The notes: generated by a model not told the origin, from the sequence alone. Counted from the first letter of the stretch, positions 3,668 to 48,424 are shown. The stretch: 64,000 bases of DNA from Scytolyngbya sp. HA4215-MV1 (GCA_019359045.1 JAHHIA010000002.1:116401-180400); one strand, 5' to 3'. A program made the numbers and translations.

Positions 3668-3845
3668 AGCGCTAGGAGTTAGGAGTCAGCTGCTAGTAAA
3701 TCTTGATTAATCTCGACTCAAAACTCGTCTCAAAGGATGTTTGAAAAGTTATTGACTGGTGATGTTGAGCCCCCTCTCACACCTATTACCTAACACCAAA
3801 CACCTGTTACCTAACCCCCAATACCGGCTACCTACCCAACCCAGC

Positions 3846-32716: not shown

Positions 32717-33234
32717 GGTGGTTGTGATCGGTTGAGCGGGAGGTCGTCGCAGCGCTGATTGACAGCGCCTGATCGCCCGGCTTCAGAACTTCAGGTTCCC
32801 CGATTCTTGACAAAAGGGCATCCCAAAAAAAGAAGCACAAGCAAAAGGATTAAACACCTAAAATCTCAGTCATTCCGCATGTCGTTATTAAAACATTACC
32901 AACAGGCTCAATGCTTACAGATATGACCTTGTCTATCGATCGTGTTATCTCAAAGTTGCAATCAGTAGGTGGGCTGATTTAGATGCAGGGTGGGTTAGCG
33001 TTAGCGAAGCCATACCAAAGGCTATTAGCGTAAACCATACGCGCGTTGGCTTGACGCATGAAACCCAATTGCTTAAGTATCCCAACGACTGACAATACTC
33101 GTTGCAGACTGCGATGATGCGGTTGAACTTAGCATTAGACAGGCAAAAAACTGTCTGTCTTATTCTCCTATCTAACAGATCTCTCCGTTAGGCTGAGTTA
33201 TTCAAACTCAATCTAGCAATCGTGGGAAAGCTTT

Positions 33235-40003: not shown

Positions 40004-43000
40004 TCATTCATTTGCAGTGCTGATGCCTCTATCATTTGCGCCCTCTGAATCAACCACCAGCCTGGCAATTGTCTGCATCAGCAAATCGGGCTCAAGCGGT
40101 TTGGCAAGATGTTCTTGAAAGCCCGCTTCCAGCGCTTTTTGTTGGTCAATTTCTCGCACATAGGCAGTAAGGGCGATCGCCGGAATTGTCCCCCCTTGTT
40201 CAGGAGGTAACGCCCGTACTTTTTGCATTAGGGTATAGCCATCCACCGTTGGCATCCCGACATCACTGATCAAAACATGGGGCTGGAATGACGGGATCGC
40301 AGCCAAAAAATCTGAACTGGAGGTCACCGTCATCACTTCGGCACCATATTCTTCTAATAAAACTGTGAGCAATTCACGCGCATCCGGATCATCGTCGATC
40401 GTCAGCACCCTTACTCCAACCAGATCGCATTCCTCTATCACTATCCCATCGACCGGAGAAATGCCTGGCTCCGTTGACAACAAGGGTAACTGAACAGCAA
40501 AGGTTGCCCCCAGCCCTTCGCCTCGGCTATACGCCGAGACTGTTCCACCGTGAGCTTCGACCAAATATCGGACGATCGCTAGCCCCAAACCCAACCCACC
40601 ATGTTGCCGGGTAATGGACACATCTTCTTGTCGGAACGACTCAAACAAATAAGGCAGAAACGTAGGATTGATGCCCTTGCCATTATCAGTGACCGTAATT
40701 TGTGCCTGATCGCCAATGGGTTCCAACTGGATAGTCACCATTCCTCCACTCGGTGTAAATTTGATGGCGTTGGAAAGCAAGTTCCAAACGATTTGCTGGA
40801 AACGGGCTGCATCGCCCGCCACCGTCCCCGTAGGCAACAATTTGGGAGAAATGAGAATCGATTTGGCAACCGCAGCCGTTTTGACAGTTTCAATTGCCTG
40901 CTCAATCACAATCGCTAAGTTAACTGGAGCAACATTTAAACTGAGTTTGCCGCGCAAAATCTTAGCCACATCCAACAGATCATCAATCAATTGGGTTTGA
41001 AGTTTGGCGTTGCGCTCGATCGTGGCTAATGCTTCTGCAGTACGAGTAGGGTCAAATTTACGCGATTGCAGGAGTTTCGTCCAACCCAGGATAGGGTTGA
41101 GGGGCGATCTCAACTCATGAGATAGAATTGCCAGGAATTCATCCTTCACCCGATTCACTCGTTCAGCTTCAGTGCGAGCATTTTTTTCTAACTGAAGTAG
41201 TCGATCTCGTTCACCTTCCAGTTGTTTTTGCGCTTCGATGTTGGTCGCCGTGCCAAACCACTTCAGCACTTGTCCCTGTTCATTTTTTTGCGGGATTGCC
41301 TGGTGTAAGTGCCAACGGAATGCACCATCAGATTGACGCATGCGTCCTTCTGCCTGATAGGGTGCCCCTGTATGAACCGCAACCGCCCATTGTTGACTAA
41401 GAATGGGCAAGTCATCAGGATGAATAATCACCTCCCAGCCATGGATTTGCACTTGCTCCAGACTCAATCCAGTAAATTTTGTCCAACGCTGATTGACATC
41501 CAGCAGTAAACCTTCTGGATCTGCCGTCCACACCAATTGAGGAATCAATTCTGCCAGACACCGATAGCGTTCCTCACTTTGTCGCAAGGCTTCTTCAGTT
41601 TGTTTGCGTTGGGTAATGTCGATCGCCACACCCATCAATCGAATTGGTTGTCCGAGTGCATTATAAGCACAGTGACCTTTTGCCGCAATCCACCGCACAG
41701 TCCCATCTGGCCACAAGCTGCGGTATTCAATGTCATAGTCCACGTGATCATAAATTGCAGCAGTCACAGCTTCGTTAGTACGTAGGCGATCGTCCGGGTA
41801 TAGCGCGTTGAGAAACACCTCATAAGACATTTCGGCATCCGGAGCCAAACCAAACAATGCCTTACATTGCGTTGTCCAGGTCAAAATATCCTTTTCCAGA
41901 TCCCAATACCACATTCCCTGCCTAGAAGATTCCAAAACCAAACGCAAGCGTTCTTCACTTTGTTGCAAAGACGCTTCTGCCTGCTTAAAGTCGTCAATAT
42001 CGGTGTTAGTGCCAAACCAGCGAATCATCTGCCCTGCTTCGTTTCGGATAGGAATAGCACGAGATAAGAACCAGCGATAGGTGCCATCTTGTCCCCGCAG
42101 CGGGAAAGTATCTTCCCAGAGCGTACCCGTTTCAATACAGTGGCGAAAATATTTAACTACGCGATCGACGTGAGCAGGATGCAGGACTTGTTGCCAGCCC
42201 CATCCCTGCATTTCTTCTAGTGTGGTGCCGGTGTATTCAAACCAGCGACGGTTATACCAGGTAGTCCAACCACTGGCGTCTGTCATCCAGGCAAACTGGG
42301 ACATGTTATCTGCCAGAGTACGGAACTGTTCTTCGCTGGCTTTTTGGGCAGCTTCTGCTTGTTTACGAGCGCTAATATCCTGGTGAACGCCTGCCATGAT
42401 TAGGGGTTTGCCCTGTTCATCCCGAACCACGATTTTGCCGTAGTTGGCAATCCATTTCCAGTGGCCCGATCGCGTACGGAGCCGATATTCAAATCGATAA
42501 GGAATCGTATCATTTTCCAGATGGGCATTCAGGCGATCGATCACCCAGGGTTTGTCATCGGGATGGATGAGTTGCACCCAAGTACTGAGATGCCCCGTGA
42601 GTTCGCCTGGGCGATAGTCCAGCATTTCTAGCCAGCCAGAACTAATGTAGATATCTCCCGTTGCGATCGTCCAATTCCAGATCCCACTGCCCGATCCATC
42701 CAGGGAGAGTTGCAGGCGCTCTTCACTCACTCTCAGTTCGGCTTCGGCTTGTTTCCGTTCCGCTAGCTCTTGTTGTGCTTGTTGATACAGCTCAGCCTGT
42801 CGAACCGCAATACTCACTTGTGCCCCTAACTGCTGAAGCAAATCGATTTCCAAAGGTTGCCATTGCCGGGGAGCTACGCAGTGGTGGGCAATCAACAATC
42901 CCCATCGTTTGTCCTCGTACAGAATGGCAACGACCAGATTTGCCTGGATTTGAAACTGGCTGAGCAGTTCGACATAGCAAGGTTCAACACTACCATCGTA

Positions 43001-43699
43001 AATATTTGCCTTGGCAACACCCTTACTCTGATGGCTCAAATCGTGGGTAGAGTGGTCCATACAAATATCTTCAAATTGCATTGACAGTAGAGATTGCCAG
43101 CTCTCTCCCACAGACTCTGCAACAACCGTACTCCGACTTCCAGCATCCAACCGCAAAATCACCACGCGATCGGTTTGGAGAAACTGCCGAACCCCAATCA
43201 CCGTGGCGTCTAGAATGTCATTCAGATCCAACGATTGACGAATTTGCTGGGTAATTTGGGCACTCAATCGCTCTAGGTCGATCCGTTGTTGCAGTTGGGT
43301 GCGCAGTTGAACCGTTGAAATTGCACCATTGACCGCTAATTGCAAGCTTTCAGGTGTAATTTGTTCTTTGACTAAATAGTCTTGTGCGCCAATTTTAATT
43401 GCCTGGACAGCAATCTCTTCGCTCCCTTGCCCCGTCACCATAATCACAGGCAAGCTGATCTGCTCACACTGCTGTTGGAGTCGAGTCAGAAATGTCAACC
43501 CATCCAAATCGGGCAGTCGATAATCCAGCAAGACCACATCCGGACGCTGCTGTTGCCAGAGTTTTAATCCAGCTTCGCCCAAACTCGCTTCTAAAAATTG
43601 ATAGCTGTGGTCTTTATCTCGACGCAAATATCGCTGATAAAGTGCTCGATCGACCGAATCATCATCAATGATCAAAATGGTGCGCTGAATTTGACTCAT
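40004..43699 (-). CDS. Multi-sensor hybrid histidine kinase (REC-GAF-PASx5-HisKA-HATPase_c-REC)
   Basis: N-terminal REC (ILIIDDDSVDRALY...VVLLDYRLPDLDG); repeated PAS units each followed by D[IT]T[EQ]RKQ[AT]E linkers; H-box HELRSPLNPILGW; N/G-box ATPase (NLLSNAIKFT, DNGKGI, GGLGLGL); C-terminal REC (VLTIDDDPDARELL...ISDVGMP). Confidence 0.9.
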   Translation of the reverse strand: MSQIQRTILIIDDDSVDRALYQRYLRRDKDHSYQFLEASLGEAGLKLWQQQRPDVVLLDYRLPDLDGLTFLTRLQQQCEQISLPVIMVTGQGSEEIAVQAIKIGAQDYLVKEQITPESLQLAVNGAISTVQLRTQLQQRIDLERLSAQITQQIRQSLDLNDILDATVIGVRQFLQTDRVVILRLDAGSRSTVVAESVGESWQSLLSMQFEDICMDHSTHDLSHQSKGVAKANIYDGSVEPCYVELLSQFQIQANLVVAILYEDKRWGLLIAHHCVAPRQWQPLEIDLLQQLGAQVSIAVRQAELYQQAQQELAERKQAEAELRVSEERLQLSLDGSGSGIWNWTIATGDIYISSGWLEMLDYRPGELTGHLSTWVQLIHPDDKPWVIDRLNAHLENDTIPYRFEYRLRTRSGHWKWIANYGKIVVRDEQGKPLIMAGVHQDISARKQAEAAQKASEEQFRTLADNMSQFAWMTDASGWTTWYNRRWFEYTGTTLEEMQGWGWQQVLHPAHVDRVVKYFRHCIETGTLWEDTFPLRGQDGTYRWFLSRAIPIRNEAGQMIRWFGTNTDIDDFKQAEASLQQSEERLRLVLESSRQGMWYWDLEKDILTWTTQCKALFGLAPDAEMSYEVFLNALYPDDRLRTNEAVTAAIYDHVDYDIEYRSLWPDGTVRWIAAKGHCAYNALGQPIRLMGVAIDITQRKQTEEALRQSEERYRCLAELIPQLVWTADPEGLLLDVNQRWTKFTGLSLEQVQIHGWEVIIHPDDLPILSQQWAVAVHTGAPYQAEGRMRQSDGAFRWHLHQAIPQKNEQGQVLKWFGTATNIEAQKQLEGERDRLLQLEKNARTEAERVNRVKDEFLAILSHELRSPLNPILGWTKLLQSRKFDPTRTAEALATIERNAKLQTQLIDDLLDVAKILRGKLSLNVAPVNLAIVIEQAIETVKTAAVAKSILISPKLLPTGTVAGDAARFQQIVWNLLSNAIKFTPSGGMVTIQLEPIGDQAQITVTDNGKGINPTFLPYLFESFRQEDVSITRQHGGLGLGLAIVRYLVEAHGGTVSAYSRGEGLGATFAVQLPLLSTEPGISPVDGIVIEECDLVGVRVLTIDDDPDARELLTVLLEEYGAEVMTVTSSSDFLAAIPSFQPHVLISDVGMPTVDGYTLMQKVRALPPEQGGTIPAIALTAYVREIDQQKALEAGFQEHLAKPLEPDLLMQTIARLVVDSEGANDRGISTANE

Positions 43700-43725
43700 G
43701 GAGGATTAGGGAAATCGAGCTGCTT

Positions 43726-44087
43726 CTAAGAGGATATTTTAAAAGTCCTTTCGCAGGTAGTAACAGACACGATCCCCCTAACTCCCCGTGCTAATGCACC
43801 GCTGCGCTAGAAAAAGAGGGGACTTCGAGGCTGATCCCCCTCTTTTTAAGGCTACCGTGTACACACAAGTAATCAGTGATGTCATTGAGTGGGTTGATCC
43901 CCCTAAATCCCCCTAAAAAGGGAACTATGAAATCTGAAGCCCCTTTTTAAGGGGGGGGGTGGGGGGATCTCCAGGGGTTTCGCCTTGAATCTGAGATTTG
44001 TGTGTACACCGTAGCCTTTTAAGGGGGGCCAGATGGGGGATCTCCGAGTGCTCAACATCACAGCGGGCACCTTTTCAAACACCCTCT
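43726..44087. repeat. Copy 1 of a duplicated upstream element of about 220 bp (shared with 46122-46345), here interrupted by a 166-bp MITE-like insertion
   Basis: Colinear blocks match copy 2 directly: TCTAAGAGGATATTTTAAAAGTCCTTTCG.AGGTAG.AACAGACACGATC; GCACCGCTGCGCTAGAAAAAGAGGGGACTTCGAGGCTGATCCCC; GGATCTCCGAGTGCTCAACATCACAGCGGGCACCTTTTCAAACACCCT. It lies 27 nt upstream of the 1231-aa kinase start. Confidence 0.7.
43851..44016. mobile_element. MITE-like miniature element with 19-bp terminal inverted repeats (GGCTACCGTGTACACACAA / TTGTGTGTACACCGTAGCC, 1 mismatch) flanked by a TTTTAAG(G) direct duplication
   Basis: Read directly. The flanks TTTTTAAGG|...|TTTTAAGGGG are both present, whereas copy 2 of the host repeat has a single TTTTTTAAGGG, consistent with a target-site duplication. 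Internal subterminal palindromes are GATCCCCCTAAA...CCCCTTTTTAAGGGGGGGGGTGGGGGGATC. Confidence 0.6.
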
Positions 44088-44342
44088 GAGACACTGCGAC
44101 CGAACCTACAACTAGGTGACTTTAAACTAATACTAATACTGTCCAAATTATGAGACAAACAACTATCTAAAGAGGGATCTATTTTATTTCCGATGGATAA
44201 CTTCTGCACAATGCTATGCCTTGATTATGAGTGGGAATATGCTCGGACGTTTTCAGCAGTTTTCAGATGGATTCGTCCCTTTACAGGGGGATGGGGAGAT
44301 GGGAGTGGCTTATGTCCATGAAAATGGCTGTAAGTCAGCTGC

Positions 44343-45839
44343 TCAGGACTGAGATCGCCCATGAGGTAGCGAGAAGTAGAAAGTTGCGCCTCCCTCGATC
44401 TCGCCTTCTGCCCAAACGCGACCGCCATGACGACGCACAATCCGCTGAACATTGGCTAGCCCAACCCCAGTGCCATCCACTGCGGTGGTATTGGGTAACC
44501 GTTGAAAAACGCTGAACAGTCGATCGGCATCCTGCATATCAAAACCGATTCCATTATCTCTAACAAAAAAGATGGTTTCGTCTAGGGTTGATCGGGCGCC
44601 GATCTCAATCTCAATACAAGGTCTCGAATAGCTATATTTCACTGCATTGTCAATCAAATTTTGCCATACCTGCCGCAGTAAGTTGCGATCGCCCTGTATC
44701 TCTGGCAAATTTGTGATCTGCCAAACAATTTCATGGTCTCTCAGCTGCATTTCAACCAAGCTACAAATTTCGTAGACCAATCGCGTCATATTAACCGTGG
44801 AATACTGCATTTCGACTCGACCTGTGCGAGAAAAATGCAACAAGTCGTCAATCATGCGTCTGCAACGGTCTGCCAAATTTTCAGTCGTTTGTAGATAGTG
44901 AAAAACTATTGCATTGCAGGGAAATGGCTCCAAAGATTGCCTGAGTAAACTCACAAACCCATTGATTTGCCGAATGGGCGATCGTAAATCGTGAGAAATG
45001 GAAAATGCAAAGGTTTCCATTTCTCCACTGATTGCCTGGATCTCCAAGGTGCGATCTTCCACCCATTGCTCTAAGGTCTGATTGCGCTGGCGCAGTGCAT
45101 TGGCAACTTGCACCTGGTCAGTGATGTCGCAGAGCAATCCTTCAATCACTTTTTGCCCATGGTTCGGCATCCCCATGGCATGAACTTGCAGCCAAACCTG
45201 TTGACCGTCTGGACGCACCCATTCCAAAATGGGAGGCGATCGAGGCGAAACTTCGGCAATTGTAGATAAGACGGATGAGTCTTGAAAAAAAACAGGCGCT
45301 GTTGCCAAAGAAGAGAAGCCTAATAAATTGAGAAAGCCCTCACTCGCTTCGAGCAATTCCCCTTGAGGAGTAGCCCGAAAAGTCCCCATATTTAATTCAT
45401 TTAAGAGCACTTTTAATCGCGACTCAGACTGAATTATCTGCTGTCTAGTCTGCTTTTTTTCTAAAATCGCACGCACAATTTGCGAGAGCCGCTCGAATTG
45501 TTCGGGTGATTTAATCACATAATCATCAAATCCCGCCTTTATCGCAGCTACCGCCACTTCTTCCGAACCCGAATTGGTCAACATCATCATGGGACAATCG
45601 GGCAGAAGTGCTTTTACCTTAGCTAAAATTTCTAATCCTGTTGTCCCATGAAGCGAAGAATCGGTAATGACCAGTTCAAAAGCGGAATTCGCTAGGGCAT
45701 TATCTAGTTCACTTAAATTACAAATCTCCTCAACCTGCACCCCCCGGAAAGATTGTTTCAGGGCTTGGATAATGAGTTGACGATCGTCAGAACTATCGTC
45801 AACTAAAAGAATAGATTGAAGGGATTGTGCTAATTCCAT
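44343..45839 (-). CDS. Hybrid response-regulator/histidine kinase (REC-PAS-HisKA-HATPase_c)
   Basis: N-terminal REC (ILLVDDSSDDRQLI...LVITDSSLHGTTG); H-box SHDLRSPIRQINGF; ATPase N/G boxes (NLIDNAVKYS, DNGIGF, GTGVGLA). Confidence 0.85.
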   Translation of the reverse strand: MELAQSLQSILLVDDSSDDRQLIIQALKQSFRGVQVEEICNLSELDNALANSAFELVITDSSLHGTTGLEILAKVKALLPDCPMMMLTNSGSEEVAVAAIKAGFDDYVIKSPEQFERLSQIVRAILEKKQTRQQIIQSESRLKVLLNELNMGTFRATPQGELLEASEGFLNLLGFSSLATAPVFFQDSSVLSTIAEVSPRSPPILEWVRPDGQQVWLQVHAMGMPNHGQKVIEGLLCDITDQVQVANALRQRNQTLEQWVEDRTLEIQAISGEMETFAFSISHDLRSPIRQINGFVSLLRQSLEPFPCNAIVFHYLQTTENLADRCRRMIDDLLHFSRTGRVEMQYSTVNMTRLVYEICSLVEMQLRDHEIVWQITNLPEIQGDRNLLRQVWQNLIDNAVKYSYSRPCIEIEIGARSTLDETIFFVRDNGIGFDMQDADRLFSVFQRLPNTTAVDGTGVGLANVQRIVRRHGGRVWAEGEIEGGATFYFSLPHGRSQS

Positions 45840-46121
45840 TTTTGTGAAATTGGATCAGGTGCCCTAAGCAATTTCTTGAACGAATGAATCAGGAAATTGT
45901 TAAAAAACAGGGCAAAAAATATTATTTTATAGAATTTAGTTGTCAAGGTTAAAAACAACTCACAACTCTAGAAATCATTATCGGAAGAATGGTCATTTCA
46001 ATCGATTGGCTATCAAATTGCTTTGTAGAATTGAAATTTTTGATAATTATTCATAATTTCAGTATAGCGGCTCGGTTCAGAATTCTCAAAAAGGTTTTCA
46101 AGAACTTTTTCTACTCAATAG

Positions 46122-46345
46122 TCTTAGAGGATGTTTTAAAAGTCCTTTCGTAAGTAGCAACAGACACGATCTCCTAAATTCCCGTGCTTTGGCGAAGCCA
46201 TGCCGACAGGCTATACGCACCGCTACGCTAGAAAAAGAGAGGACTTTGAGGCTGATCCCCTCTTTTTTAAGGGAGGGGTTGGGGGGGGATCTGGGAGTGC
46301 TCAACATCACAGCAAGCACCTTTTCAAACACCCTTTCAAACATCC
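46122..46345. repeat. Copy 2 of the duplicated upstream element, about 280 nt upstream of the 44343..45839 hybrid kinase
   Basis: See copy 1. Small minus-strand ORFs predicted in both copies (FEKVPAVMLSTRRSP / FEKVLAVMLSTPRSP) reflect the repeat and are probably not genes. Confidence 0.7.
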
Positions 46346-46593
46346 TCTTAGAAAGAGTATTGATTGTCTGAATCCACCCTGATTTAATCGCGACCAAAAA
46401 ATCCATTTATTCCTTGAGTGGTGCTGCGCCAAGTTCTCTATTTTCCTGTTAGATCAAATTCTATCTAGTGTATTATCTATATTAAGAAATTCAAAACTGT
46501 CTAAAGTTAGAGATGGATTCCGATAGATTTTTTATAGTTCTTTGTTGATGGTGTAATGTTCCCGTTTGCCCGGTGAGGTTGATCGCTCTCCCT

Positions 46594-47067
46594 ATGAAAG
46601 AGTTTGGATTTGGGCATTTCAATTCTACATTGCCAGAACTGAGCCTTAAGGGGATCAAAATTTTGGCGATCGATGACAATCCTGAATGCTGTGGCATTCT
46701 GTCGATGTTGTTTAAGCTTTACGAAGCGGAAGCACAAGTGGTGACAAAATCGAGCAAAGCATTGGAATTGCTATTGCAATGGCAGCCGCAGGTATGGGTG
46801 ATTGATATCGCTCTGCCCATAATCGACGGATTCGAGTTGCTCAACTCTATTCGCAGTCTGGAAGCCAAACAAGGGCTGACTCCCACTCCCGCGATCGCCA
46901 TTACTGCCCGCCTTACTCCCAGTATCGAAAAAAAAGCTTACCAGGTAGGCTATAGTGCGCTCTTCGCCAAGCCGCTCCAAATTGACAATTTTGTTGCAAC
47001 TTTGATGTCTCTGGCTCAAACAACATTGCCTGCCTCTCTCCAAGCGTCGCCTCTAAAACCCGATTAA
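46594..47067 (+). CDS. Single-domain response regulator (CheY-like receiver)
   Basis: IKILAIDDNPECCGILSMLF...VWVIDIALPIIDGFELL...AIAITAR...LFAKP are receiver-domain conserved positions (DD, D, T/A, K). The ORF track begins at a TTG at 46573. Confidence 0.75.
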   Translation: MKEFGFGHFNSTLPELSLKGIKILAIDDNPECCGILSMLFKLYEAEAQVVTKSSKALELLLQWQPQVWVIDIALPIIDGFELLNSIRSLEAKQGLTPTPAIAITARLTPSIEKKAYQVGYSALFAKPLQIDNFVATLMSLAQTTLPASLQASPLKPD

Positions 47068-47236
47068 ATTCAATGCCCATTGCATCGAGGGGGCGCTTGC
47101 CATTAGCCAGGATAATGCGTGGGTGAGATCGTCACCACAAATGTCCCCATCCTCCTAAGTTACCGATCACAGCCACCCAGTCTACGCCACGATTCGTTCC
47201 CATTTCTCACAACCCAGCGGTCAATGCCAAAACCCA

Positions 47237-48424
47237 ATGCAAGATTTTAGTCAACTTTTGAAGCATAAAAAATTAGCAATTACAGAACAATGGATTACAG
47301 CCGTTGCCGAAAGCCAACGCATTGCCAGTACGGAAGGTCTTCCGCGATCGGCAATTCGAGATCACATTGATCAGGTTCTTGCAGCGCTAGTCTCGGTTTT
47401 GGCACGTGATCAAGACAATGAAATTGCCGATATTGTGAAAGCCAGTTTGCGTCATGGTAAAGCGCGCGCCGCTCAAGGATTTAACCCAGCAGAAATTGCC
47501 CAGGAGTATCACTTGCTGCGATCGCTGCTGCGCCAAAATCTCTGGACAGAATTGATGCAAGAAACTACCAAAGATGCGGTACGAGCGATCGCGATGATTG
47601 ATGAAGTCATCGATGCAGCGATTTCTGTCTGTTTTCAGAGCTATATGGAAGAACGCACCGCTGAATTACAGCAAATTCAACAACAGCTCCATCTGACCGT
47701 GCAGGAGTTACAACGTCTGGTTCAAGTCAGCCAGGATAATGTCTCCCTATTGGCACATGAATTGAAAACGCCTCTATCTGCCATGATTGGCTATGCCGAA
47801 TTATTTTTGCGACAGCAACGAAAGGTCAGCGATACTACGGAACTGAGTTACGACGCGATCGAACGCATTATTCGGGCAGGAAGAAAACTCGTTTACCTCA
47901 TCAACGATGCCCTGGAATTTTCTCAGTCTGATGATGGGCAAGTGTGCGTCAAACCGGTTGCTATCTCCATTGCGGCGGTACTCAATGATATTGTTGAAAC
48001 CATGCATCTCCTGGCAGAAGAGAAAGGACTCACCCTGACCCTGGAGATCGATCAGGCACCTGCATCCGTCACAACTGATTCGCTGAAGCTCCAGCAAATC
48101 GTGATTAACCTCGTGAGTAATGCCATTCGCTACACCGATACAGGTACTATTACCGTTAGGAGTAAAACGCTCTCTGCCGAAAGTTGGTCTATCTCCATTA
48201 TTGACACAGGCATTGGTATCGCGAGCGAAGATCAGTCCCGGATTTTTAATCCCTTTGTACGTGCCACTCCCCCCGATCGACTCCCACCTGCCGAAAGTAG
48301 CGGACTGGGATTATCCATTGTCGAACGGTTGGTTAAAGTCCTGCATGGCAACATTTATTTAACCTCTCAAGTGGGTATAGGCTCAACCTTCACCCTGATT
48401 TTGCCCATGCATTTGCAGGCCTGA
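47237..48424 (+). CDS. Cytoplasmic sensor histidine kinase (HisKA + HATPase_c)
   Basis: H-box LAHELKTPLSAMIGYAELF; N-box NLVSNAIRYT; G-boxes DTGIGI and GLGLSIVERL. No TM segments. Confidence 0.85.
   Translation: MQDFSQLLKHKKLAITEQWITAVAESQRIASTEGLPRSAIRDHIDQVLAALVSVLARDQDNEIADIVKASLRHGKARAAQGFNPAEIAQEYHLLRSLLRQNLWTELMQETTKDAVRAIAMIDEVIDAAISVCFQSYMEERTAELQQIQQQLHLTVQELQRLVQVSQDNVSLLAHELKTPLSAMIGYAELFLRQQRKVSDTTELSYDAIERIIRAGRKLVYLINDALEFSQSDDGQVCVKPVAISIAAVLNDIVETMHLLAEEKGLTLTLEIDQAPASVTTDSLKLQQIVINLVSNAIRYTDTGTITVRSKTLSAESWSISIIDTGIGIASEDQSRIFNPFVRATPPDRLPPAESSGLGLSIVERLVKVLHGNIYLTSQVGIGSTFTLILPMHLQA

Follow-up and report, generated by a model that had tools for sequence, protein, structure and literature searches.

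Nested non-autonomous transposable elements as the probable origin of the repeats upstream of two kinase genes in Scytolyngbya sp. HA4215-MV1

The window analysed here is a stretch of 64,000 nucleotides from Scytolyngbya sp. HA4215-MV1 in which similar non-coding sequences lie upstream of two REC-first kinase genes. The locus raises the question of whether these sequences form a duplicated regulatory module, or whether they are mobile DNA that happens to lie beside the kinases. A first-pass annotation had favoured the regulatory explanation, with a recent MITE insertion into one of the copies. From the analysis described below we consider, with a probability of about 0.85, that the region consists of nested non-autonomous transposable elements and is not a duplicated regulatory module. 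Both elements belong to already known kinds, the outer one to MITE-like elements and the inner one to an IS4-family IS/MITE group.

The outer repeat and its distribution

Colinear direct repeats were found at 43725-44093 and 46122-46352, each upstream of a minus-strand kinase gene, which confirms the arrangement reported in the first-pass annotation (Table 1). In the alignment their identity was 85.1% over 195 aligned positions, with 37 gap columns in addition. They had been described as near-identical, with identical blocks of more than 40 nt, but the longest identical stretch is 19 nt. Three probes of 19-29 nt derived from the repeat gave two matches each in the 64-kb window, against a chance expectation of 0.00-0.01. 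The REC-first architecture ascribed to the kinases was supported by Pfam; the PAS domain of the 498-aa kinase is a PAS_9 match with an E of 6e-4, under the cut-off. Both kinases are neighbours of the elements and lie outside them.

Table 1. Features of the kinase locus and related sequences, in coordinates of the window.
Feature	Position	Strand	Remarks
1231-aa hybrid histidine kinase	40004..43699	-	Pfam REC-GAF-PAS(n)-HisKA-HATPase-REC
498-aa kinase	44343..45839	-	Pfam REC-(weak PAS)-HisKA-HATPase
Outer MITE-like element, copy 1	43730..44086	+	TIR to TIR, split by inner MITE
Outer MITE-like element, copy 2	46127..46347	+	uninterrupted where copy 1 carries the MITE
Outer element, partial third copy	3727..3775	-	right-hand 50 nt
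Inner MITE, 163 bp	43852..44014	+	IS4-family (Tn5-like, ISSysp3-related) ends
Left terminal inverted repeat of inner MITE	43852..43870	+	CTACCGTGTACACACAAGT
Right terminal inverted repeat of inner MITE	43996..44014	-	reverse complement CTACGGTGTACACACAAAT
Left target-site duplication of inner MITE	43842..43851	.	CTTTTTAAGG, 10 bp
Right target-site duplication of inner MITE	44015..44024	.	CCTTTTAAGG, 9/10 vs left
25-nt insert, copy 2 only	46189..46213	+	lies in a small hairpin loop (stem GTGC...GCAC)
12-nt tandem duplication, 2.8 copies	46313..46346	+	CAAACACCCTTT, right end of copy 2
Conserved non-coding block	44145..44186	-	85.7% vs orthologous locus L127

The termini of the outer repeat are inverted repeats of ~20 nt, GAGGRTGTTTNAAAAGT, flanked by T-N-A; in copy 2 they are 19-20 nt long with a complementarity of ~89%. 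These inverted termini had been overlooked in the earlier annotation. Copy 1 is flanked by TAA (43727-43729) and TGA (44087-44089), and copy 2 by TTA on both sides (46124-46126 and 46348-46350). The element has a size of ~170-230 bp and a GC-rich double palindrome at its centre, GATCCCCC..CCCCC-loop-GGGGG..GGGGGATC. A gap of 25-30 nt separates the near end of copy 1 from the ATG of the 1231-aa kinase, and copy 2 occupies the middle of the intergenic region from which the gene of the 498-aa kinase and a response-regulator gene diverge, its start being 283 nt from the ATG of its own gene. The partial third copy precedes a Wzt-type ABC-transporter gene by ~70 nt.

Copy 2 had been presented as the preserved empty site of a before/after pair. 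It is indeed uninterrupted, but it is paralogous to copy 1 and not orthologous, and it has two changes of its own, the 25-nt insert and the 12-nt tandem duplication. Empty MITE targets inside the outer element were found in copy 2, in a Pantanalinema MAG (L002) and on a plasmid of Nostoc C052 (L134); the orthologous locus L127 is without the inner MITE and also without the outer element. A string of 28 nt at 32998-33025 resembles the 25-nt insert and is the only similar one in the window, and a 20-nt insert is common to copy 1, copy 2, L002 and the metagenome contig L063. In general type, both inserts may be likened to the small dispersed repeats (SDR) of Nostoc (Elhai et al. 2008, cited in PMC3116915), as very short sequences of 20-25 nt that seem to have entered the loops of hairpins in larger repeats.

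The outer element is present in Pantanalinema, Thainema, Kovacikia, Nostoc and metagenomes, where the adjacent genes are unrelated (an FAD oxidoreductase and a LysR regulator, a Wzt-type ABC transporter, a CHAT-CHASE2 protein, and RND/ABC transporter genes). When genome contigs of species representatives were scanned with the outer-element pattern, matches were obtained in Pantanalinema and Thainema only. Complete copies are carried by the Pantanalinema MAG L002, by the metagenome contigs L063, L022 and L070, by plasmid pA of Kovacikia (L133) and by the Nostoc C052 plasmid (L134). All of these have the outer termini, as does L068, a complete element of 143 bp from which the palindromic core is absent; L108 has the left end and the core without the right terminus, and fragments occur at 3727-3775 of the window, in L003 and in L099. 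T-N-A was seen at every outer end. The two flanks match directly in six of nine complete copies and in none do they have the inverted form expected of an extension of the inverted repeat; copy 1 and L063 are unmatched with TAA/TGA each, and the flanks of L068 are ambiguous.

The distribution, the inverted termini and the T-N-A flanks suggest that the outer element is mobile, and it appears to be a dispersed MITE-like element, that is, ordinary selfish DNA. No homologues were found of the spurious ORFs that it encodes, scans of viral contigs with three patterns gave no match, and the Rfam search returned only a sub-threshold lncRNA match that we judged meaningless. A search for an autonomous partner in ~0.86 Mb, window included, gave no pair of termini at an IS-like spacing. 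An IS630-family element beside an outer-type terminus in L121 was ruled out as the partner, as its ends are different. Elements of the IS5 family (IS1031/ISL2-type) and of the PIF/Harbinger-Tourist group have a 3-bp TNA/TWA duplication. The outer element resembles them in its GAGG... termini and flanking T-N-A (direct in 6/9), although no transposase-bearing partner was found in the ~0.86 Mb, and its assignment to this type is a lead only.

The inner MITE and its partner IS

The first-pass annotation was right that copy 1 is split by a true MITE with terminal inverted repeats and a target-site duplication; the length of this MITE is 163 bp, not 166 bp. Its inverted repeats, CTACSGTGTACACACAAGT, are 19 nt long as had been stated, and the two arms agree at 17 of 19 positions. 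The flanking duplication is also present, but it comprises 10 bp, and the GG/CC belong to it and not to the inverted repeats. The left duplication lies within the loop of the copy-1 palindrome CCCCC-TCTTTTTAA-GGGGGG. The interior of the MITE has a palindromic core of its own, GATCCCCC...GGGGGGATC, and its coding content is limited to one spurious frame of 63 codons. While the MITE insertion is real, calling it recent has only a loose basis, given inverted repeats that agree at 17/19 and a duplication that agrees at 9/10.

Scanning of metagenomes with the end sequence gave at least 120 stretches with an inner-MITE end. Among the matches listed there were 67 paired elements, 60 of them MITE-sized (80-420 bp, median ~167 bp), and in the same matches the direct repeat was 9-12 bp with a mode of 10, exact in 31 of 63 cases and with at most one mismatch in 41 of 63. 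In 30 of the listed elements the flanking dinucleotide was other than GG/CC and yet inside the direct repeat, which means that the element begins at CT. A reading with GG in the inverted repeat and a duplication of 6-7 bp was rejected in favour of CT ends and a 10-bp duplication, with which complete IS copies agree.

The 19-20-nt ends of the inner MITE are identical to the ends of 1.49-kb elements found in L093, L095, L100 and L118. This IS has a length of ~1486 bp (1484-1492) and one transposase of ~450 aa, which matched NCBIfam NF033590 (IS4 family) with 371 bits and Tn5 transposase structures with E = 3e-35 over ~400 aa; the Y-2-R-3-E-6-K motif is legible in L095, YKWRWRIEQLFATLK. Its 5'-CT ends, YREK motif and single transposase are also those of IS4-family elements of the Tn5/IS50 type. 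The partner ends would agree with the outside end of Tn5 at 13 of 19 positions. Exact 10-bp duplications surround the full-length IS copies in L129, L130 and L132, three complete plasmids, and 10 bp is about the norm of the IS4 family. Judging by sequence, an autonomous IS4-family partner for the inner MITE exists. What the window MITE has in common with this IS is limited to the 19-20-nt ends, its interior being the palindromic core and not a deleted IS.

Members of the IS50 subgroup have the end consensus CW------Y---CA-A--W- and a size of 1350-1550 bp (PMC2266710), and the left end of the inner MITE, CTACCGTGTACACACAAGT, agrees with this consensus at all seven specified positions. The direct repeats of the subgroup are 8-9 bp (PMC2266710), whereas in the present IS/MITE family they are 9-12 bp with the mode at 10, so that the subgroup value does not apply here. 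The nearest named relative of the partner IS is ISSysp3 of Picosynechococcus sp. PCC 7002, whose copy on pAQ7 is named an ISSysp3-family transposase in RefSeq; its DNA identity to the partner IS is only ~65%, and the pAQ7 copy is not in a C-run/G-run palindrome.

Known cyanobacterial MITEs (Nezha/ISNpu3, the Microcystis MaeMITEs and the Anabaena MITEs) are non-coding elements of ~130-435 bp with inverted repeats and a target duplication, and, like the inner MITE, they are multi-copy and intergenic and share their ends with ISs (PMC3184786, PMC6042816). Nezha/ISNpu3 (~130-170 bp) is compatible with the inner MITE in size and in repeat length, the two properties to which the comparison was confined (PMC3184786, PMC6042816); its published direct repeat is 10 bp, CATTATCTAC, and is not a C/G palindrome (PMC6042816). 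A text search for the end sequence of the inner MITE gave no match.

Target palindromes of the IS/MITE family

Palindromes of the C-run/loop/G-run type were present at 31 of the 41 sites reconstructed among the matches listed (76%), compared with 0.2% for positions drawn randomly from these loci; the sample is enriched for G-flanked targets, because the scan pattern demanded GG ahead of CTAC. Exceptions are two full-length IS copies, of PCC 7002 and Acaryochloris, which are more distant and lie at non-palindromic sites, and the palindrome preference of the family appears to be statistical rather than absolute. Tn5 itself has merely a weak symmetric target consensus, in contrast to the strong preference of this subfamily. 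It is conceivable, although we would sooner bet against it, that a Tn5-like (IS4-family, ISSysp3-related) subfamily together with its MITEs has evolved in filamentous cyanobacteria a strong specificity for the loops of C-run/loop/G-run palindromes, which two or more unrelated MITE families would carry as their core module. In that case mobile elements would be landing pads for each other, and nested intergenic repeat clusters would arise while genes are spared. If the specificity is real and undescribed, this would be a relative of Tn5 that selects its targets by structure or sequence, and it would explain why cyanobacterial repeats have the GATCCCCC...GGGGGATC module in common. This target preference is the most notable by-product of the analysis.

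Several ISs target REP/BIME palindromes, among them IS1397, ISPpu9/10, ISPa11 and ISRm22 (Tobes and Pareja 2006, PMC1525189), and ISRm22 belongs to the IS4 family and shows a marked specificity for its targets (PMC2266710). In common with the family described here, they insert into short GC-rich repeated extragenic palindromes. The differences are that the target hairpin is here a C-run/loop/G-run inside other MITEs, which leads to MITE-in-MITE nesting, that the host is a cyanobacterium, and that the specificity is statistical (76% of the sampled sites).

Origin of the repeats and the question of regulation

The syntenic orthologous loci L126 and L127 have both kinases, and neither outer copy nor the inner MITE was detected in them with nhmmer and blastn. 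Their intergenic DNA is too diverged, with heptamer repeats, for the pre-insertion sequence to be resolved to the base level. Of the non-coding DNA between the kinase genes, only the block at 44145-44186 is conserved in L127; it is a candidate for the site from which the 1231-aa kinase is natively regulated, and the composite element separates it from the ATG of that gene.

We infer the following order of events. A MITE-like element of ~170-230 bp with the termini GAGGRTGTTTNAAAAGT would have entered the Scytolyngbya genome at two intergenic sites in separate events; a fragment occupies a third site. The 163-bp MITE would then have entered copy 1 at the loop of its right-hand C-run/G-run palindrome, duplicating a 10-bp target. 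It would have been mobilised in trans, presumably by the Tn5-like DDE transposase of the 1.49-kb IS4-family IS that shares its 19-nt ends, and by homology the mechanism is likely to be cut-and-paste. The proximity to REC-first kinases would reflect insertions tolerated in intergenic DNA, and an effect on kinase expression, if any, would be a side effect of insertion, for example through the long structured leader of the 1231-aa gene.

Two other histories were weighed against this one. The composite of outer element and inner MITE could have transposed as a unit into the copy-1 site, with no insertion of the MITE at this locus, since an inner-type MITE is nested at the same palindrome in L063, L099, L133, L070, L065 and L025. 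However, the duplication in L063, CCTTTTTAAG, is shifted by 1 nt relative to that in the window, the MITE interiors of the two are unrelated and have only core fragments of ~25 nt in common, and the nearest relatives of the window MITE (L091, L104, L059 and others) sit outside outer elements. These differences point to independent nested insertions in the window and in L063. As the IS/MITE family prefers palindromes of a type present in the outer element, such nesting has probably arisen repeatedly and independently in other cyanobacteria, and the strong target preference accounts for the recurrence; we regard transfer as a unit as very improbable. The two copies, 2.4 kb apart in direct orientation and each with a REC-first kinase downstream, might also suggest that, instead of transposition, a segmental duplication within the locus copied one intergenic region and possibly an ancestral kinase gene as well. 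This is scarcely credible and is already contradicted by the data: the similarity ends exactly at the inverted termini, with unrelated flanks, the kinases are just 27-29% identical, the orthologous loci hold both kinases and neither copy, and copy 1 is nearer to L063, a contig of another organism (89%), than to copy 2 (85%).

A shared promoter/5'UTR with co-regulation, or a duplicated regulatory cassette, had been the proposal of the first-pass annotation. In its broader form, in which the outer repeat is, or was co-opted as, a cis-regulatory cassette (promoter, 5'UTR or attenuator) coupling both REC-first kinases, we consider it unlikely. Its appeal is that each copy precedes a kinase gene, that the gene-relative orientation of the two agrees, and that copy 1, because it lies between the block at 44145-44186 and the ATG, is probably transcribed as the leader of the 1231-aa gene. 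The RNA of the copy-1 region is predicted to fold strongly (-163 kcal/mol, z = -7.2), and an A-tract/stem/U-tract hairpin is legible in this region; any nested inverted-repeat element should fold strongly, however, and Rfam has no match. Five of seven copies elsewhere face the adjacent start codon in the orientation seen at the kinases, which is weakly compatible with selection for function, but in other genera the element adjoins unrelated genes, and L126 and L127 are without both copies. The distances of the two copies to the ATG, 25 and 283 nt, differ tenfold. A promoter scan that covered sigma-70-like sites, with other cyanobacterial promoter types outside its scope, gave no match within copy 1 or copy 2, and the best matches for the 498-aa gene were between copy 2 and its ATG. 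The use of the repeats as evidence for kinase co-regulation is thus not supported, and they probably have no regulatory function.

With nested mobile elements as the preferred explanation, annotating the repeat as a promoter or RNA element would be inappropriate, as would citing it for co-regulation of the kinases. The probable leader of the 1231-aa kinase would be longer by ~370 structured nt than in the related genome, with mobile DNA as the cause. The analysis supplies clean element borders, the 10-bp length of the duplication and the palindromic pattern of the targets for a Tn5-like IS/MITE family that is widespread in cyanobacteria. That the repeats nest and break short-read assemblies is useful to know when Leptolyngbyaceae genomes are assembled and their repeats annotated. 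In the same organism, Logan contigs end at 43872, 43991 and 46152, and these breaks are consistent with additional element copies in the source genome.

The quadruplex potential that had been ascribed to G-runs inside the inner MITE was borne out at the level of pattern matching. The canonical pattern (four runs of G3+ with loops of 1-7 nt) is present on the + strand at 43951-43977, and a second occurrence lies in copy 2 at 46271-46295, also on the + strand. Both are candidates defined by a pattern match, and the same G-runs would form arms of the palindromes.

The outer repeat and its probable mobility

One sequence occurs in two copies, upstream of the 1231-aa kinase gene and upstream of the 498-aa kinase gene. 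By repeat finding and alignment the copies share three colinear blocks of 56-77 nt with 81-89% identity, and probes taken from them each gave exactly two hits in the window, where chance would give 0.00-0.01. The first-pass annotation had described near-identical repeats with blocks of more than 40 identical nt; the colinear repeat upstream of both kinases is real, but the similarity was overstated, the longest identical block being 19 nt and the overall identity, with the insert of copy 1 taken out, 85.1% over 195 positions. Copy 1 starts 25 nt from the ATG of the 1231-aa gene and copy 2 starts 283 nt from that of the 498-aa gene. Copy 2 terminates in 19-nt inverted repeats (TCTTAGAGGATGTTTTAAA / TTTCAAACATCCTCTTAGA), present in a weaker form in copy 1. 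At the right end of copy 2, 12 nt are duplicated in tandem, and a 25-nt insert at 46189-46213 is private to this copy.

Features of the window and outer-type copies elsewhere (L-numbers are contigs or loci from other organisms or metagenomes)
Feature	Position or locus	Strand	Description
1231-aa ORF	40004-43699	minus	REC-GAF-PAS(n)-HisKA-HATPase-REC (Pfam)
498-aa ORF	44343-45839	minus	REC-HisKA-HATPase (Pfam)
Response-regulator gene and RsbRD_N-HisKA-HATPase kinase gene	46573-48424	plus	divergent from the 498-aa kinase
Outer element, copy 1	43730-44086		contains the inner MITE
Outer element, copy 2	46127-46347
Inner MITE	43852-44014		target duplication CTTTTTAAGG / CCTTTTAAGG
Outer-element fragment	3727-3775		right end, 50 nt; upstream of Wzt-type ABC-transporter gene
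Insert of ~20 nt, GTGCTAATGCACCGCTGCGC	43787-43806; 46184-46227		copy 1; copy 2
Outer copy	L133		Kovacikia minuta plasmid pA (complete plasmid)
Outer copy, 171 bp	L134		Nostoc sp. C052 complete plasmid; between RND-adaptor gene and ABC-permease gene
TTA/TTA flanks	copy 2, L133
TAA/TAA flanks	L002, L022, L070, L134

The Pfam architectures of the two ORFs bear out their earlier description as REC-first kinases; a PAS_9 match in the 498-aa protein (E 6e-4) falls short of the curated cut-off. Identity between the two kinases is only 27-29%, so the repeats are no remnants of a duplicated gene. A scan of species-representative genomes recovered a full-length outer copy, 77-79% identical, from a Pantanalinema MAG (L002), where an FAD-oxidoreductase gene and a LysR-regulator gene flank it; a Thainema MAG has part of the element, with CHAT-CHASE2 and DUF1822 genes on either side. 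More copies were present in contigs retrieved for the inner element (L063, L022, L070, L099, L108, L065, L025 and L068). Copy 1 is closer to the L063 copy (89%) than to copy 2, and the flanks of the L063 copy are entirely unlike those of copy 1. The outer repeat is thus itself mobile-element-like. Every outer-element end is bordered by T-N-A, equal on both sides in six of nine complete copies, a candidate 3-bp duplication; copy 1 and L063 are mismatched (TAA/TGA). The inverted form of the flanking T-N-A, as from an extension of the inverted repeat, was never seen among the outer copies. A search of ~0.86 Mb of sequence, window included, found no transposase-bearing partner with outer-element termini.

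Assembly graphs built with k=31 branch at repeats, and contigs are expected to break there. Logan short-read contigs from this organism stop at 43872 and 43991, about 20-25 nt inside the MITE ends, and another stops at 46152, 31 nt into copy 2. These breaks suggest that further copies exist in the source genome and give no count of them.

The inner MITE and its partner IS

Metagenomes were scanned with the inverted-repeat sequence of the first-pass annotation, GG being required beside one end. The end sequence was found in more than 120 stretches (a lower bound), and at least 67 paired elements were extracted among the matches listed. Among these, 60 of the 67 were of MITE size (80-420 bp, median ~167 bp) and five belonged to a long class of about 1.4-1.5 kb. 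Four of these long elements, L093, L095, L100 and L118 (1484-1492 bp), each encode a transposase of ~450 aa. The transposase of this IS scores 371 bits to NCBIfam NF033590 (IS4 family), matches Tn5 transposase structures over ~400 residues (E = 3e-35) and contains the Y-2-R-3-E-6-K motif; a copy on plasmid pAQ7 of Picosynechococcus PCC 7002 is annotated as an ISSysp3-family transposase. The IS is the autonomous partner of the inner MITE, and the sequence common to the two is limited to the 19-20-nt ends.

If the inverted repeat is made to include GG/CC, the direct repeat around the element appears to be 5-8 bp. Among the matches listed, 30 elements have an outer dinucleotide that is not GG/CC yet lies within an exact or near-exact direct repeat, so the element starts at CT. 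The target duplication of the family then measures 9-12 bp, most often 10 (among the matches listed), and perfect 10-bp duplications flank three full-length IS copies on complete plasmids (GTTTATTAAG, CCCTCTAAAT and GTCTATAGGG). The CT ends and CTACCGTGTACACACAAGT match the published end consensus of the IS50 subgroup (PMC2266710). The insert in copy 1 is therefore a MITE with inverted repeats and a target duplication, as originally proposed, but the GG/CC counted into it lies outside the element.

A palindromic core with C4+ and G4+ runs is present in 47 of the 60 MITEs of this family (among the matches listed). In L037 (156-1550), the gene for an IS110-family transposase (two ORFs, 184 and 148 aa) lies between two IS4-type ends; an inner-family MITE seems to have been hit by an IS110-type element. 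Plasmid pPg_02 of Pseudanabaena galeata (L005:2930-3125) carries a one-ended copy without a right end: the left MITE end sits in one palindromic core, inserted behind CCCCCCTTTACAAG, and continues into a second core, which suggests recombination between palindromic cores.

Target choice and nesting

The reconstructed pre-insertion sites (n=41) consist of 6-7 nt rich in C/T, about six variable bases, on which the duplication is centred, and a G/A-rich run. At least four C in the left 6 nt together with at least four G in the right 6 nt were found at 31 of the 41 sites, recovered with the GG-requiring scan pattern, as against 0.2% of 200,000 random positions on the same contigs. Two more distant full-length IS copies are located in ordinary sequence. 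The core of the outer element is a double palindrome, GATCCCCC..CCCCC-loop-GGGGG..CCCCC-loop-GGGGG..GGGGGATC, of which the right-hand small palindrome fits this target pattern. As a preferred target it harbours an IS4-type MITE or full IS in the outer-type elements of L063, L099, L070, L065, L025, L133 and L131, and target choice explains the nesting. The duplication in L063 is offset by one base relative to the window, the interior of its MITE is unrelated to that of the window MITE, and the nearest relatives of the latter (among the matches listed) lie outside outer elements; the nestings are therefore independent events. At L131:150-262 (Kovacikia minuta plasmid pA) the flanks of a full-length 1484-bp IS4-type element within an outer-type element derive from different palindromes without a matching duplication, suggesting an IS-mediated rearrangement.

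Cyanobacterial MITEs are well documented, the Nezha/ISNpu3 pair among them (PMC3184786, PMC6042816), and some IS, one of them in the IS4 family, are known to target repeated extragenic palindromes (PMC1525189, PMC2266710). The elements described here are of these known kinds, the inner MITE being compatible with Nezha in size and direct-repeat length. The data also point to a Tn5 relative whose target preference is strongly palindromic, and to a core module, common to two MITE families, that acts as this target; that this is a genuine intrinsic property and also undescribed seems to us rather doubtful (about three chances in ten).

Hairpin loops of the outer element seem to gather insertions at three levels. 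The ~20-nt insert, located in the core's left small palindrome, is common to copies 1 and 2, L002 and L063 and missing from L133, L134, L108 and L003. The 25-nt insert of copy 2 lies within the loop of a small GTGC..GCAC hairpin and resembles a 28-nt string, GCGAAGCCATaCC.AAAGGCTAT, located 13 kb away at 32998-33025; the two may represent a very small dispersed repeat, of a kind reportedly described by Elhai et al.

Regulatory context and orthologous loci

The shared repeat had been thought to indicate a common promoter and co-regulation of the kinases. A promoter scan found no sigma-70-like promoter within copy 1 or copy 2, and the best candidates for the 498-aa gene, TTGAGA-17-TATACT (46089-46061) and TTGACA-16-TAATAT (45946-45919), both fall in the interval from copy 2 to the ATG. 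No Rfam family matches the repeats. The predicted RNA fold of the copy-1 region is very stable (-163 kcal/mol, z = -7.2) and that of copy 2 moderate (z = -3.0), and inverted repeats that are nested would be expected to fold stably. Relative to the nearest start codon, outer copies point one way in five cases and the other way in two, not a significant bias. Co-regulation of the kinases by way of the repeat thus finds no support; the leader of the 1231-aa kinase may be affected incidentally by the structured insert of 370 nt. Of the five canonical quadruplex-pattern matches in the 64-kb window, two lie within these elements, at 43951-43977 and 46271-46295 (+); both are antisense to the kinases and coincide with palindrome arms.

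The closest homologues of the 498-aa protein (69% and 66% identity) are encoded on L126 and L127, where the gene order is kept: RsbRD_N kinase, response regulator, divergent 498-aa kinase and the start of the large kinase. The divergent response regulator/RsbRD_N kinase arrangement is kept in L126, and the locus is thus a conserved multi-kinase signalling cluster. Neither nhmmer nor blastn found a match to the outer or inner element in L126 or L127. The two kinase genes are separated by 643 nt in the window and by 410 nt in L127. The sole non-coding block of this spacer that is conserved relative to L127 is 44145-44186 (85.7% over 42 nt), which may represent the 1231-aa kinase's native promoter or operator; the 20 nt preceding the ATG of the 1231-aa gene are likewise alignable. 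The composite element, copy 1 with its MITE, therefore separates the start codon from a regulatory block that is probably native. The surroundings of copy 2 behave in the same way against the orthologous loci. The inter-kinase spacer is a hot spot for repeat turnover. At about the place of copy 1, the orthologous loci have heptamer tandem repeats (AATTCAG / AAATCCA; L126:6650-6760 and L127:2790-2850) that resemble cyanobacterial STRR sequences.
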